Part shown: piece by piece, positions 2,793 through 17,805 of the stretch
How positions within the stretch are numbered: position 1 is the stretch's first letter
Layout: each line of letters opens with the position of its first letter
Source: Escherichia phage 285P
Strand: one strand, 5' to 3'
Sequence record: NC_015249.1
DNA length: 39,270 nucleotides
Position numbers and translations under genes: made by a program
Notes under the pieces: model-generated
The model's input: only the letters and a program-made list of their open reading frames with translations
What the model was told of the DNA's origin: nothing
Database searches by the model: none

Positions 2793-5444
2793 ATGACTAA
2801 CGTAATCAACGCACCAAAGAACGACTTCTCTGACATCGCTAACGCAATCATGCCATACAACATTCTGGCTGACCATTACGGCGCACAGCTTGCAGCTACG
2901 CAGTTACAGCTTGAGCACGAAGCGCACACTGAGGGTGAGAAGCGTTTTCTTAAGGCAATGGAACGTCAAATCAAAGCGGGTGAGTTCGGTGATAACGCAG
3001 TGGCTAAACCGCTCCTGTCATCTCTCGCACCGAAGTTTATCGAAGCGTGGAACACTTGGTTCACCGAGGTGGAAGCGAAGCGTGGCAAGCGTCCAGTAGC
3101 CTACAATCTGGTACAGAAGGTTGCACCTGAAGCGGCAGCTTTCATCACACTGAAGGTCACACTCGCTTGCTTGACGAAAGAAGAGTTCACCAACCTGCAA
3201 TCGGTCGCCACTAAGATTGGTCGCAGTATTGAGGATGAACTGCGTTTTGGTCGCATCCGTGACGAAGAAGCGAAGCACTTTAAGAACCACGTACAGGAGG
3301 CACTGAACAAGCGCGTTGGTATCGTCTACAAGAAAGCATTCATGCAAGCCGTAGAGGGCAAGATGCTTGATGCTGGTCAACTGCAAACCAAGTGGACTAC
3401 ATGGACACCTGAAGAATCAATTCACGTTGGTGTGCGCATGTTGGAACTGCTCATCGGGTCTACTGGTCTCGTTGAGTTACACCGCCCGTTCGCTGGTAAC
3501 GTTGAGAAGGATGGCGAGTACATCCAACTGACCGAACAATATGTAGACCTGCTGTCTAAACGTGCTGGTGCACTGGCTGCAATCGCTCCGATGTATCAGC
3601 CTTGCGTGGTCCCTCCGAAGCCTTGGACTTCTCCGGTTGGTGGTGGCTATTGGGCTGCTGGTCGCAAGCCTCTCTCTCTGGTTCGTACTGGTTCCAAGAA
3701 GGGACTTGAGCGTTACAACGATGTGTACATGCCTGAAGTTTACAAGGCCGTGAACATCGCACAGAATACTCCTTGGAAGATTAACAAGAAGGTTCTGGCA
3801 GTGGTCAACGAGATTGTGAACTGGAAGCATTGCCCGGTTGAAGATGTTCCTGCTCTGGAACGTGGTGAACTGCCTGTCAAACCTGAAGACATCGACACGA
3901 ACGAGGCATCTCTCAAAGCGTGGAAGAAAGCGGCCTCCGCAATCTACCGCAAAGAGAAGGCACGAGTGTCACGCCGCATGAGCATGGAGTTCATGTTAGG
4001 TCAGGCCAATAAGTTCGCACAGTTCAAAGCTATCTGGTTCCCAATGAACATGGACTGGCGCGGTCGTGTGTATGCTGTGCCGATGTTTAACCCGCAAGGC
4101 AACGACATGACCAAAGGCTTGCTGACGCTCGCTAAAGGTAAACCAATCGGTGTCGATGGGTACTACTGGCTGAAGATTCACGGTGCTAACACTGCTGGCG
4201 TGGACAAGGTGGACTTTGCAGAACGCATCAAGTTCATTGATGACAACCATGAGAACATCATGAGCGTAGCTGCTGACCCGATTGCTAACACTTGGTGGGC
4301 CGAGCAAGACTCTCCGTTCTGCTTCCTCGCGTTCTGCTTCGAGTATGCAGGTGTGCAACACCACGGGATGAACTACAACTGCTCTCTTCCGCTGGCGTTC
4401 GATGGTAGCTGCTCCGGTATTCAGCACTTCTCCGCGATGCTCCGTGATGAGATTGGTGGTCGTGCGGTTAACCTGCTGCCGAGCAAGGAAGTACAGGACA
4501 TCTACCGCATCGTTGCGGAACGTGTGAACGAAATACTGAACCAAGATGTTATCAACGGGACCGACAACGAAGTAGAGACCGTGACCAATAAGGACACCGG
4601 AGAAATCACTGAGAAGCTCAAGCTGGGAACTAAGGAACTGGCTGGTCAATGGTTAGCATACGGTGTTACTCGTAAGGTGACTAAGCGTTCCGTTATGACC
4701 TTGGCGTATGGTTCCAAAGAGTACGGCTTCCGTGACCAAGTGCTAGAGGATACCATTCAGCCAGCTATCGACGATGGCAAGGGCTTGATGTTCACTCAAC
4801 CGAACCAAGCGGCTGGCTACATGGCTAAACTGATTTGGAACGCGGTAACGGTGACAGTGGTCGCAGCGGTTGAAGCAATGAACTGGCTGAAGTCTGCGGC
4901 TAAACTTCTAGCTGCTGAAGTCAAGGACAAGAAGACCAAAGAGGTTCTCCGTAAGCGCTGTGCGGTACATTGGGTTACTCCTGATGGCTTCCCGGTCTGG
5001 CAGGAATACAAGAAGCCAGTACAGACCCGCTTGAACCTGATGTTCTTAGGCCAGATTCGTCTACAGCCTACCGTGAACACCAACAAGGATAGCGGGATTG
5101 ATGCTCGTAAACAGGAGTCAGGTATCGCACCTAACTTTGTTCACTCAATGGATGGTAGCCACCTGCGCATGACCGTGGTTCGCTCCAACGAGGTCTACGG
5201 TGTGGAATCGTTCGCACTGATTCACGACTCCTTTGGTACTATCCCTGCTGATGCTGGCAACCTGTTTAAAGCAGTGCGTGAAACGATGGTGAACACCTAT
5301 GAAGAGAACGATGTACTAGCAGACTTCTATGAGCAATTTGCTGACCAGTTGCACGAATCACAGCTTGACAAGATGCCTGAGATGCCAGCTAAAGGTTCTC
5401 TGGACCTGCAAGAAATCCTTAAGTCAGACTTTGCGTTTGCCTAA
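2793..5444 (+). CDS. 1: T7-type single-subunit DNA-dependent RNA polymerase
   Basis: 883 aa (same as T7 RNAP); long identical stretches to T7 gp1 as recalled (PMFQPCVVPPKPWT, DGSCSGIQHFSAMLRDE, HDSFGTIPADA, C-terminal FAFA). Confidence 0.97.
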   Translation: MTNVINAPKNDFSDIANAIMPYNILADHYGAQLAATQLQLEHEAHTEGEKRFLKAMERQIKAGEFGDNAVAKPLLSSLAPKFIEAWNTWFTEVEAKRGKRPVAYNLVQKVAPEAAAFITLKVTLACLTKEEFTNLQSVATKIGRSIEDELRFGRIRDEEAKHFKNHVQEALNKRVGIVYKKAFMQAVEGKMLDAGQLQTKWTTWTPEESIHVGVRMLELLIGSTGLVELHRPFAGNVEKDGEYIQLTEQYVDLLSKRAGALAAIAPMYQPCVVPPKPWTSPVGGGYWAAGRKPLSLVRTGSKKGLERYNDVYMPEVYKAVNIAQNTPWKINKKVLAVVNEIVNWKHCPVEDVPALERGELPVKPEDIDTNEASLKAWKKAASAIYRKEKARVSRRMSMEFMLGQANKFAQFKAIWFPMNMDWRGRVYAVPMFNPQGNDMTKGLLTLAKGKPIGVDGYYWLKIHGANTAGVDKVDFAERIKFIDDNHENIMSVAADPIANTWWAEQDSPFCFLAFCFEYAGVQHHGMNYNCSLPLAFDGSCSGIQHFSAMLRDEIGGRAVNLLPSKEVQDIYRIVAERVNEILNQDVINGTDNEVETVTNKDTGEITEKLKLGTKELAGQWLAYGVTRKVTKRSVMTLAYGSKEYGFRDQVLEDTIQPAIDDGKGLMFTQPNQAAGYMAKLIWNAVTVTVVAAVEAMNWLKSAAKLLAAEVKDKKTKEVLRKRCAVHWVTPDGFPVWQEYKKPVQTRLNLMFLGQIRLQPTVNTNKDSGIDARKQESGIAPNFVHSMDGSHLRMTVVRSNEVYGVESFALIHDSFGTIPADAGNLFKAVRETMVNTYEENDVLADFYEQFADQLHESQLDKMPEMPAKGSLDLQEILKSDFAFA

Positions 5445-5451
5445 CGGAATC

Positions 5452-5474
5452 TAATACGACTCACTATTGGGAGC
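5452..5474 (+). promoter_or_regulatory. T7-type promoter (phi1.1A-like) TAATACGACTCACTATTGGGAGC
   Basis: Seen: perfect -17..-2 match, T at -1; begins 8 nt after the RNAP stop. Confidence 0.8.
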
Positions 5475-6702: not shown

Positions 6703-7734
6703 ATGGAAATCACATTCAAGACTAACCCTTTTAAAGCTGTATCCTACGTTGAGTCTGCCATTAAGAAAGCACTCGACAAAGCTGGCTACCTGATTGCTGA
6801 CACTAAGCATGATGGTGTGCGTGGTAACATCGTGGTTGATAATACGGCTGACTGCCTGTGGCTGTCCCGTGTCTCTAAGACCATCCCCGCGCTTGAGCAC
6901 CTTAATGGGTTCGACCAACGCTGGGCTAATGTTCTCAAAGATGACCGCTGGATTTTCCCTGATGGCTTCATGCTGGATGGTGAACTGATGGTCAAAGGCG
7001 TAGACTTCAACACAGGGTCTGGCCTACTGAGAACCAAGTGGCTCAAGAAGACAAACTGTGGATTTGATATTGGTGGAGTAGAGCCTCTCAAGGGGAGTAA
7101 AGTAGACTTCTGCTTAGACCCTAAGAAACTTAAGGTTGTCCTGTATGCCGCTATGCCGTATCACGATATGGTAGAAGGCAAAGAGTACGGCGTTATGTCC
7201 CTCCTGATGCAAGAGCATGTGCGTTCCCTCATTCCGGTTCTTAGCGAACACTTCCCGGAAATCACTTGGGAACTATCTGAGGCCAAAGAAGTCTACGATA
7301 TGGTAGAACTTCAGGAACTCTACGAGAAAGCCCGTGCCGATGGTCATGAAGGTCTGGTCGTCAAAGACCCGCTGGAAGTCTACAAGCGCGGGAAGAAGTC
7401 TGGCTGGTGGAAGATGAAGCCTGAGAATGAAGCTGATGGTGTCATCGTTGGACTCAATTGGGGTACTCCGGGTCTGGCTAATGAAGGTAAAGTGATTGGC
7501 TTTGAGGTTCTCTTGGAGTCCGGTCGTGTAGTCTCTGCCAACAACATTAGCCAAGCGTTGATGGATGAGTTTACTGCTGCCGTCAAACATGCTGAGTCTG
7601 TGGGTATGGGTATGCCTTACACTGGCTTCGCCTGTCAGGTTGCCTACATGGAGGAAACTCCTGATGGTTCTCTGCGTCACCCTTCGTTCGTTATGTTCCG
7701 TGGTACTGAAGATAACCCAACGGAGAAGATGTAA
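6703..7734 (+). CDS. 1.3: ATP-dependent DNA ligase
   Basis: 343 aa; KxDGxR adenylation motif (DTKHDGVRGN) and extensive identity to T7 ligase as recalled (GLVVKDP, KSGWWKMKPENEADG, EGKVIGFEVLLESGR, RHPSFVMFRGTEDNP). Confidence 0.95.
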   Translation: MEITFKTNPFKAVSYVESAIKKALDKAGYLIADTKHDGVRGNIVVDNTADCLWLSRVSKTIPALEHLNGFDQRWANVLKDDRWIFPDGFMLDGELMVKGVDFNTGSGLLRTKWLKKTNCGFDIGGVEPLKGSKVDFCLDPKKLKVVLYAAMPYHDMVEGKEYGVMSLLMQEHVRSLIPVLSEHFPEITWELSEAKEVYDMVELQELYEKARADGHEGLVVKDPLEVYKRGKKSGWWKMKPENEADGVIVGLNWGTPGLANEGKVIGFEVLLESGRVVSANNISQALMDEFTAAVKHAESVGMGMPYTGFACQVAYMEETPDGSLRHPSFVMFRGTEDNPTEKM

Positions 7735-7916
7735 TGATAATCTTTGACCAAGGCATTTGGAAGGTATGGCAACACCCACACTTACAGGTATTCCACATCC
7801 TGAAGTGGTCTGAGGGAGACGACCCAGCCTCTTATGGGCGCAAGTGGGATTACTTCACACAGAAAGAGTGTAGAAGCATATCCGAGGTAAAGGCATATCT
7901 TCACGCCAACATGTAG
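7734..7916 (+). CDS. hypothetical protein (gene 1.4/1.5 position)
   Basis: 60-aa ORF overlapping the ligase stop (TAATG); no recognised homolog. Confidence 0.4.
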   Translation: MIIFDQGIWKVWQHPHLQVFHILKWSEGDDPASYGRKWDYFTQKECRSISEVKAYLHANM

Positions 7917-7923
7917 TAACACT

Positions 7924-7958
7924 GGTCAGACTTTCGGGTCTGGCCTTTTCGTGTTTCT
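7924..7958 (+). terminator. intrinsic terminator, candidate early terminator TE for host RNAP
   Basis: Seen: GGTCAGAC-TTTCGG-GTCTGGCC 8-bp stem followed by TTTTCGTGTTTCT; T7 TE lies just after the ligase region. Confidence 0.6.
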
Positions 7959-7978
7959 ATTAGACTCACTATGGAGGA
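7957..7978 (+). promoter_or_regulatory. degenerate T7-type promoter-like element (CTATTAGACTCACTATGGAGGA)
   Basis: Seen: GACTCACTAT core but 1-nt short before GG and altered -17..-12; near-duplicate of the element at 8065. Confidence 0.35.
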
Positions 7979-7986
7979 ACAACCTC

Positions 7987-8067
7987 ATGCTATTTCTAAT
8001 TGCTGCTGCTGTCTTTGCCACGTTTGCCTTCGTTATCATTGACGACAACTGCTGGCCTGATTGCTAA
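7987..8067 (+). CDS. tiny hydrophobic peptide (26 aa, MLFLIAAAVFATFAFVIIDDNCWPDC)
   Basis: ATG 9 nt after a GGAGG; too short for the ORF track; hydrophobic. Confidence 0.25.
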   Translation: MLFLIAAAVFATFAFVIIDDNCWPDC

Positions 8068-8087
8068 TACGACTCACCTATGGAGGA
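8065..8087 (+). promoter_or_regulatory. T7-type promoter variant with 1-nt insertion (TAATACGACTCACCTATGGAGGA)
   Basis: Seen: perfect -17..-5 then CTATGG; GGAGG doubles as the RBS for the 8095 ATG. Confidence 0.45.
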
Positions 8088-8094
8088 AACACTT

Positions 8095-8358
8095 ATGTTA
8101 CGACTACACTTCAACAAATCAAACGGTATCTTTTCGGCTCGTGGTTCCGACCGCTCGACGGTTCTTGCCTCTGAGAAACATGCAGTCATTCCTAAAGTGC
8201 TTGGCTCGACCATTGAGTTAGCACCTCGTGTTCACGCTGTAATCACCACTGGCTTATATAAAGAAGCGACCACTGGCTCCCGGCCTTTCATTCCGGTTCT
8301 TGTCACCCGTTTCCCTAAAGTCCGTCTGGTCATTGCGCGTATCAAGGAGGTGTTCTAA
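8095..8358 (+). CDS. gene 1.6-like hypothetical protein
   Basis: 87 aa from the second Met of ORF 8080-8358 (the first Met lies inside the promoter); position after the ligase block matches T7 gene 1.6. Confidence 0.55.
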   Translation: MLRLHFNKSNGIFSARGSDRSTVLASEKHAVIPKVLGSTIELAPRVHAVITTGLYKEATTGSRPFIPVLVTRFPKVRLVIARIKEVF

Positions 8359-8669
8359 TGGTCTGTATGGCATGTTTAGAGAGTGATGACCGCTACCCAC
8401 ATACCTGTGAACCTGTAGCTAAACCACAAGATATAGAGGGTGTTCGGACTCCTAGCCACTATATGTTGTTTGACGACATTGAGGCTATCGAAGTGATTGC
8501 CCGGTCGATGACCCGTGAACAGTTCAAGGGGTACTGCTTAGGGAACATCCTTAAGTATCGCCTACGTGCTGGTAAGAAATCTGAACTAGCATTCTTAGAG
8601 AAGGACATGGCGAAAGCTGGGTTCTATGGTGAACTGTACGAGAAACACAAAGGTAAGTGCTATGCTTAA
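8358..8669 (+). CDS. 1.7: gene 1.7-like protein (short form of T7 nucleotide kinase gp1.7)
   Basis: 103 aa; CxxC...YPHTC and C-terminal SHYMLFDDIEAIEVIARSMT..FKGYC.GNILKYRLRAGKKSELA.LEKD match T7 gp1.7 as recalled, but ~90 internal residues of the T7 protein are absent. Confidence 0.7.
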   Translation: MVCMACLESDDRYPHTCEPVAKPQDIEGVRTPSHYMLFDDIEAIEVIARSMTREQFKGYCLGNILKYRLRAGKKSELAFLEKDMAKAGFYGELYEKHKGKCYA

Positions 8670-10705: not shown

Positions 10706-10798
10706 ATGATGATTATCCACGAGATGGGTCTGTACGATTTGATTTATCGCCTCGCGTTCATGCTGGCAATGGTCTACATTCTGACCCGCAAGGATTAA
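10706..10798 (+). CDS. tiny hydrophobic peptide (30 aa, MMIIHEMGLYDLIYRLAFMLAMVYILTRKD)
   Basis: Hand-translated; immediately after the amidase gene; end overlaps the next promoter. Confidence 0.25.
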   Translation: MMIIHEMGLYDLIYRLAFMLAMVYILTRKD

Positions 10799-10817
10799 TA
10801 GAACTCACTATGGGAGA
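10795..10817 (+). promoter_or_regulatory. T7-type promoter variant (phi3.8/phi4-like) TTAATAGAACTCACTATGGGAGA
   Basis: Seen: ACTCACTAT-GGGAGA with one base fewer than consensus; followed by 5' hairpin GGGAGA-GCCGAAAGGTT-TCTCCC. Confidence 0.55.
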
Positions 10818-10868
10818 GCCGAAAGGTTTCTCCCTTTGTTCGCTAAAATTGTATAAGGAGTAATCACT

Positions 10869-13655: not shown

Positions 13656-13678
13656 CTATTCAACTCACTAATGGGAGA
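13656..13678 (+). promoter_or_regulatory. T7-type promoter (phi4.7-like) CTATTCAACTCACTAATGGGAGA
   Basis: Seen: good -10..+6, weaker upstream half. Confidence 0.55.
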
Positions 13679-13686
13679 ACAACACT

Positions 13687-14088
13687 ATGCGTAATCGTAA
13701 TGTAATCGAAGCTGAAATCGCTAAACTGGAAGCTGAACTGGCAGACATCAAGGAATACGAATGTGCTCGTGACTCCGCTGTCCACATCCTGAAGAACTTA
13801 GGGTGGACTCGTGTTCGCGGTAAGTGGGTGCAACCAGTGAATCGTCCTGACCTGAAGGTATTCGATAAGGACACCATGACCCACATTAAGGCTGGTGACT
13901 TCTGCACATCAACTGAGACATCCTCTCTATGGTACGTGCGCACGGTCGCTGGCAACATCTGCTGGTGCTCACGAGTGTCCCGCATTGCTCCTAATGGAAC
14001 CTTAGTGACCAGCAACAACGTTGGAATCAAAGCTGAGAACCTGAAGGTAATCAACGTGAAAGACTATATGGGATACACCCATCGTTAA
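13687..14088 (+). CDS. hypothetical protein (gene 4.7 position)
   Basis: 133-aa ORF directly after the R4.7-like element and promoter; T7 gp4.7 is of similar size. Confidence 0.65.
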   Translation: MRNRNVIEAEIAKLEAELADIKEYECARDSAVHILKNLGWTRVRGKWVQPVNRPDLKVFDKDTMTHIKAGDFCTSTETSSLWYVRTVAGNICWCSRVSRIAPNGTLVTSNNVGIKAENLKVINVKDYMGYTHR

Positions 14089-17731: not shown

Positions 17732-17754
17732 CAATACGACTCACTATTGAGAGG
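17732..17754 (+). promoter_or_regulatory. T7-type promoter (phi6.5-like) CAATACGACTCACTATTGAGAGG
   Basis: Seen in sequence. Confidence 0.7.
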
Positions 17755-17805
17755 GGTGCCTATATGATACCTACTTTAAGTTTAACTTTAAGGAGAACAT
17801 TAATT

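Follow-up and report, generated by a model that had tools for sequence, protein, structure and literature searches.

The window, by which we mean the whole 39,270-nt stretch of DNA analysed here, carries 16 T7-type promoter sites, all on the + strand, with the consensus TAATACGACTCACTATTGGGAGA. The region studied matches 263 phage records in nucleotide comparison, the closest relatives (97-98%) being Enterobacter phage PZJ0206, Salmonella phage BSP161 and Escherichia phage S523, with BA14, Kvp1, Yepe2 and Berlin slightly more distant than these three. Judged from these matches, the window is a Berlinvirus genome of the subfamily Studiervirinae, like the relatives just named. The features needed for the discussion are the following:

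2793..5444, + strand: gene 1, single-subunit phage RNA polymerase (trans-acting; 883-aa ORF)
7924..7949, + strand: TE, early terminator for host RNA polymerase (9-bp stem, 4-nt loop, TTTT tail; from the terminator scan)
7957..7979, + strand: promoter phi1.5 (-17..+6), CTATTAGACTCACTATGGAGGAA, predicted start G7974 (or G7973)
7973..7977, + strand: Shine-Dalgarno (SD) sequence GGAGG of gene 1.5, within the phi1.5 initially transcribed region, 9-nt spacer to ATG 7987
7987..8067, + strand: gene 1.5, 26-aa hydrophobic peptide MLFLIAAAVFATFAFVIIDDNCWPDC (ORF listing)
8065..8087, + strand: promoter phi1.6 (-17..+6), TAATACGACTCACCTATGGAGGA, predicted start G8082
8082..8086, + strand: SD sequence GGAGG of gene 1.6, equal to +1..+5 of phi1.6, 8-nt spacer to ATG 8095
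8095..8358, + strand: gene 1.6, 87 aa, BC10 family (ORF listing)

The gene 1 polymerase has 76% identity to T7 RNA polymerase (BLASTP) and keeps the specificity-loop residues R746, N748, R756 and Q758 (QTRLNLMFLGQIRLQ), with F755 replaced by I in the same loop; as far as its sequence tells, it would read both phi1.5 and phi1.6.

For the region before phi1.5, the TE hairpin folds at -19.1 kcal/mol (z = -4.9), combines a G+C-rich stem with a T-run, lies past the last early gene, and is the same hairpin that is annotated as TE in BA14. It was obtained from the terminator scan and the fold; a repeat search, with the seed chosen, did not report any inverted repeat. A scan for host sigma-70 promoters found none within 7600-8400, and three phage promoters (at 5452, 6076 and 6599) lie upstream of TE. 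A reading made earlier from the sequence alone (hereafter the sequence-only reading) had placed the two elements just past an early terminator, and the 11-nt gap between the TE hairpin and the phi1.5 element agrees with this. The further suggestion that they may set the boundary between class I and class II transcription appears overstated, as TE ends transcription by the host polymerase and the promoters at 5452, 6076 and 6599 are already upstream. A 60-aa ORF (7734-7916, + strand; phrog_6957, E 8e-22), whose start overlaps the ligase stop codon (TAATG, 7732-7736), lies between the ligase gene and TE in the window, whereas in BA14, Yepe2 and Kvp1 TE follows directly after ligase, and this gene is thus an insertion/deletion difference among close relatives.

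The two segments are 7957-7989, CTATTAGACTCACTATGGAGGAACAACCTCATG, and 8065-8097, TAATACGACTCACCTATGGAGGAAACACTTATG. The sequence-only reading had given both strings correctly and had described each as a phage RNA polymerase promoter fused to an SD sequence and an ATG, a description borne out by the matrix scores and by identity with promoters of BA14; the hydrophobic 26-aa ORF and the gene 1.6-like ORF that it placed downstream are likewise both found in the ORF listing. Because the GACTCAC cores of phi1.5 and phi1.6 are 108 nt apart and an exact 11-mer, CTATGGAGGAA, recurs at a distance of 109 nt, the stretch from core to GGAGG differs in length by one base between the copies. The gene 1.5 product matches phrog_10145 (E 4.6e-17, 26/26 residues aligned) and is annotated in BA14, Yepe2 and Kvp1, and the gene 1.6 product matches phrog_1777 (E 2.5e-38) and is annotated in BA14 and Yepe2. 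The stop codon TAA of gene 1.5 (8065-8067) forms positions -17..-15 of phi1.6. Another ATG (8080-8082, + strand) lies inside phi1.6 at -2..+1, in frame with gene 1.6, and would give a 92-aa ORF; the ETEP21B annotation starts gene 1.6 at the equivalent codon, which is without an SD sequence of its own and would be missing in transcripts initiated at phi1.6.

The 23-mers 7957-7979 and 8065-8087 are 100% identical to the annotated phi1.5 and phi1.6 of BA14 (EU734171), and the latter is also 100% identical to a promoter of ETEP21B. Both promoters are annotated in Yepe2 (EU734170) and ETEP21B (OR979722), while the Kvp1 record has phi1.5 annotated and contains the phi1.6 sequence without a promoter annotation. 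All of these annotations in Berlinvirus relatives are similarity-based; the Kvp1 paper describes its promoters only as located with PHIRE and similar to those of phage Berlin. The order ligase-TE-phi1.5-1.5-phi1.6-1.6 is common to the window, BA14, Yepe2, ETEP21B and T7, and in the window ligase, TE, phi1.5, gene 1.5, phi1.6, gene 1.6 and gene 1.7 follow one another on the same strand. From the matrix scores, the conservation, the gene order shared with T7 and the identity to promoters annotated elsewhere, we conclude, with a probability of roughly 0.85, that the two elements are phi1.5 and phi1.6, the class II (middle) promoters of a T7-like Berlinvirus phage.

For the strength of the match, a matrix was made from the window's 14 other phage promoters and scored at ~78,000 positions on both strands. 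Genome-wide, phi1.6 (20.2 bits) and phi1.5 (17.4 bits) rank 15 and 16, and the best non-promoter site on either strand reaches 5.9 bits. The elements are thereby the two weakest consensus matches among the promoters of the genome, in line with the earlier description of them as off-consensus. Shifted registers were tried for both and rejected at -22 to -52 bits, the ungapped register alone giving a fit. The recognition core GACTCAC (-11..-5) is intact in both, and the deviations are found elsewhere. In phi1.5, positions -17..-12 (CTATTA) score -2.5 bits and -4..-1 (TATG) 3.6 bits; in phi1.6, -17..-5 is a perfect consensus match (23.3 bits, 10.2 + 13.1) and -4..-1 (CTAT) scores -5.5 bits, the T (-4) and A (-3) that are invariant in the other 15 promoters being replaced by C and T. 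The canonical -4..-1 sequence in this phage is TATT or TAAT. Both elements have G at +1, the initiation region reading TATG then GA in phi1.5 (with G at -1) and CTAT then GG in phi1.6. The proposal that each element carries a 1-nt deletion or insertion in this region holds for phi1.5, where a net deletion leaves a gap of 3 nt from CAC to GGAG; in phi1.6 this gap is the normal 4 nt, as in both T7 promoters, and the deviation lies instead in base identity at -4/-3. A G at -1 is also present in this phage's phi3.8 (10796), and GA starts are also present in OL and phi6.5. The promoter at the phi3.8 position (TAATAGAACTCACTATGGGAGAG, 10796-10818, + strand) has the same 3-nt CAC-TAT-G spacing as phi1.5, and T7 phi1.5, 1.6, 3.8, 4c and 4.3 have TAAA at -4..-1 in common; a subset of class II promoters thus has a lineage-specific deviation of the melting segment in common.

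Conservation was compared across 16 distinct Berlinvirus sequences. In each promoter a single column of the 17 at -11..+6 is variable, as against 31 of the 46 neighbouring third-codon columns and 43-57% in the SD-ATG spacers (Fisher p = 1e-5). So few variable promoter columns beside freely varying neighbours indicate that both promoters are under purifying selection, their deviant parts included. Positions -4..+6 of phi1.5 are invariant across the 16 relatives, and its upstream half is variable (CTATTA, CTATAC, CTATTC, CTATAT, TAATTA) in a register that is always ungapped. The one variable column of phi1.6 is the extra base, mostly C, A in the Yepe2/Berlin type and missing in one metagenomic contig. 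Two natural variants of phi1.6 were seen: L016 (1170-1192) is without the extra base (TAATACGACTCACTATGGAGG) and has an SD-ATG spacer 2 nt longer, and L015 (1169-1193) has one base missing at -14 (TAAACGACTCAC). Pattern scans of IMG/VR gave no Berlinvirus variants beyond the set already compared, and each 50-nt promoter region occurs in ~80 deposited phage genomes (at least 80% identity, full length).

These data bear on the idea that one or both elements are decayed relics without initiation, genes 1.5 and 1.6 being expressed by read-through from phi1.1A, phi1.1B and phi1.3 and the remaining bases being kept for SD and coding functions. Such an account would fit the scores, as phi1.5 and phi1.6 are the two lowest-scoring promoters, the former being poor at -17..-12 (-2.5 bits) with G at -1 and the latter breaking the two otherwise invariant positions -4 and -3. 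It would also fit the further damage or change in L015 and L016, the missing phi1.6 annotation in the Kvp1 record, and the several genera without any phi1.6. A dead promoter, however, should drift at exactly the positions that are kept here, as do the flanking spacers and third-codon positions, which vary freely. The 13-nt binding region of phi1.6, TAATACGACTCAC, which serves neither a coding nor an SD function apart from its TAA stop, is unchanged in 15 of the 16 relatives, and the non-coding GACTCAC of phi1.5 is variable in only one of its 7 columns. The promoter decay that the sequence-only reading had considered likewise disagrees with the deviant -4..+6 stretches being among the most conserved columns in the 16 relatives, and we regard loss of initiation at either element as improbable.

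The similarity of the two segments had also suggested a local duplication. The 33-nt gapped similarity, including the exact 11-mer, would be compatible with a recent tandem duplication of the promoter-RBS-ATG unit in this phage lineage. This similarity, however, ends at the ATG: over the 75 nt that follow, the alignment score is -14 versus -8.3 +/- 4.3 for shuffles, 1878 of 2000 shuffles being equal or better, so that nothing points to a local tandem event. From -4 onward, moreover, the pair is only 11th in similarity among 120 promoter pairs, and throughout the relatives the two elements keep SD-ATG spacers that are unlike each other. T7 has both promoters in the same places, with the TAA stop codon of gene 1.5 again forming -17..-15 of phi1.6, and the arrangement is therefore old and shared. 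No homology was found beyond the functional motifs, and a recent event of this kind seems very improbable indeed. An older copying of the cassette, in which phi1.6 was made from phi1.5, or a gene conversion that keeps the pair alike, is a tentative and on the whole unlikely alternative. It would explain why the initiation region is common to the two promoters of a lineage and specific to that lineage (TAAAGGAG in T7, TATGGAGGA here), with -4..+5 more alike within each genome's pair than between orthologues of different genera. Copying would also be compatible with the identity of T7 phi1.6 and phi4.3 over the 23-mer and into the first downstream bases, and with the comparison to T3-type genomes, against which phi1.6 looks like 14 nt inserted after the TAA stop and before GGAG. 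The shared bases are nevertheless the functionally constrained ones, namely the lineage's own preference at -4..-1 and the SD sequence, and since TAAA is also found in T7 phi3.8 and phi4c, and TATG in this phage's phi3.8, convergence would be sufficient; with phi1.6 in only two genera, there are too few cases to give a direction of copying.

The most likely explanation, on the comparisons above, is that both elements are weak class II promoters constrained by an initially transcribed sequence that doubles as the SD sequence. In T7-type promoters, -17..-5 is the binding region and -4..+6 the initiation region (PMC5937735). The host RNA polymerase coming from the early region would stop at TE, and the phage polymerase would pass TE from the promoters at 5452, 6076 and 6599, with further initiation at phi1.5 and phi1.6. 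Each element would then work as a compact cassette, in which the core GACTCAC is followed by GGAGG, at once initially transcribed and serving as the SD sequence, and by a start codon 8-9 nt on. The predicted 5' ends, G7974 (or G7973) and G8082, would be set by the distance from the binding region, and the transcripts would thus begin within the SD sequence. Weak promoters would be expected here, because +1..+6 must spell an SD sequence and not the optimal GGGAGA, and -4..-1 are off-consensus. The class II promoters of T7, including phi1.5 and phi1.6, have been modelled at ~1% of phi10 strength, and T7 lysozyme moves transcription from class II to class III promoters (PMC6938266). The sequence-only reading had offered deliberate weakening as an option, which agrees with the established picture of class II promoters in T7. 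No transcription start-site data for any Berlinvirus were found in the searchable literature, and we infer both initiation in vivo at phi1.5 and phi1.6 and their functional weakness from the comparisons above.

A more speculative proposal, which we consider rather improbable, is that the one-base shifts of register within the initiation region are a tuned feature and not noise, and that phi1.6 is also ancient, with decayed remnants elsewhere. The distance between CAC and GGAG in phi1.5 differs by lineage, from 3 nt in the window to 4 nt in T7 and 5 nt in T3, and such variation could place the 5' end of the transcript inside or at the edge of the SD sequence. If true, the register would set the translation of the small genes from their own transcript relative to read-through transcripts.

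As phi1.5 and phi1.6 are, by sequence match, already known, being annotated in close relatives and in T7, the identity with the promoters annotated in BA14 makes the finding an ordinary one, of little importance beyond correct annotation. It confirms a standard middle-gene control region of the T7 group, in which two odd-looking promoters are conserved and not decaying. The conserved phi1.6, which breaks T(-4)/A(-3), and phi1.5 with its 3-nt melting segment may serve to test, on naturally occurring sequences, how T7-type polymerases select their start sites.

Among known systems, BA14 is the same as the window in both 23-mers, the TE hairpin, the gene order and the overlap of stop codon and promoter, the elements being without any difference. 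More widely, phi1.5 with gene 1.5 is present in most sampled Studiervirinae; a gene 1.5 before gene 1.6 was not seen in the representatives of Kayfunavirus (ST31) and Caroctavirus (CR8). The distribution of phi1.6 is narrower, being limited among the sampled relatives to Teseptimavirus and Berlinvirus, with none in T3-like phages, Helsettvirus, Pektosvirus, fPS-50, PP81, Klebsiella phages and L018, and it is thus dispensable in principle. The T3-type genomes (T3, SH2, phiSG-JL2) share TE, phi1.5, gene 1.5 (ending in ...DDNIWPDC) and gene 1.6 with the window but are without phi1.6, the TAA stop of gene 1.5 lying directly before GGAGA and the ATG of gene 1.6. In L018, a more distant relative whose gp1.6 is 79% identical, 10 nt are duplicated in tandem (CTATACGACT) within the upstream half of phi1.5 (1053-1085), the spacer is a normal 4-nt TAAT, and the place of phi1.6 is taken by ATGACTTCATAAGGAGG (1169-1194), which resembles a decayed promoter. 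In Yersinia phage fPS-50, TAATAACTAAAGGAGA upstream of gene 1.6 (L081:279-294) resembles T7 phi1.6 minus CGACTC, and in the Klebsiella phages (contig L020:1177-1197) GAGCCACCTAAAGGAG inside gene 1.5 resembles GACTCACCTATGGAG; these segments of fPS-50 and the Klebsiella phages may be what is left of an ancestral phi1.6, or the likeness may be due to chance.

In T7 (NC_001604), where phi1.5 and phi1.6 are annotated and accepted promoters, their starts at 7778 and 7895 come after ligase and TE, as in the window. The T7 cassettes also have the same build (TAATACGACTCAC, 4 nt, GGAG as the SD sequence, then ATG), the TAA stop of gene 1.5 again supplies -17..-15 of phi1.6 with exactly 14 nt to GGAG, and the genes downstream are likewise a small hydrophobic gp1.5 and then gp1.6. 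The two phages differ in that both T7 promoters have TAAA at -4..-1 and the upstream half of T7 phi1.5 is consensus, whereas the window has TAT (one base shorter) and CTATTA upstream in phi1.5, and CTAT in phi1.6; gene 1.4 between TE and phi1.5 is found in T7 only. T7 phi4.3 and phi4.7 resemble the window's pair in having the SD sequence in the initially transcribed region and an ATG 11-13 nt from +1, and the upstream half of T7 phi4.7 is of the CTATTC type, as in phi1.5 and phi4.7 of the window, although these two T7 promoters are located elsewhere in the genome and serve other genes. There are thus four promoter-SD-ATG cassettes in T7 (phi1.5, 1.6, 4.3 and 4.7), and those of the window are phi1.5, 1.6, 4.7 (13656) and 6.5 (17732). 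The cassette at 13656-13688 (+ strand) is CTATTCAACTCACTAATGGGAGAACAACACTATG, with an upstream half that resembles T7 phi4.7 and the window's own phi1.5, and the one at 17732-17767 (+ strand) is CAATACGACTCACTATTGAGAGGGGTGCCTATATG. On these comparisons, the promoter-SD-ATG cassette is a general and recurrent design of the T7 group.
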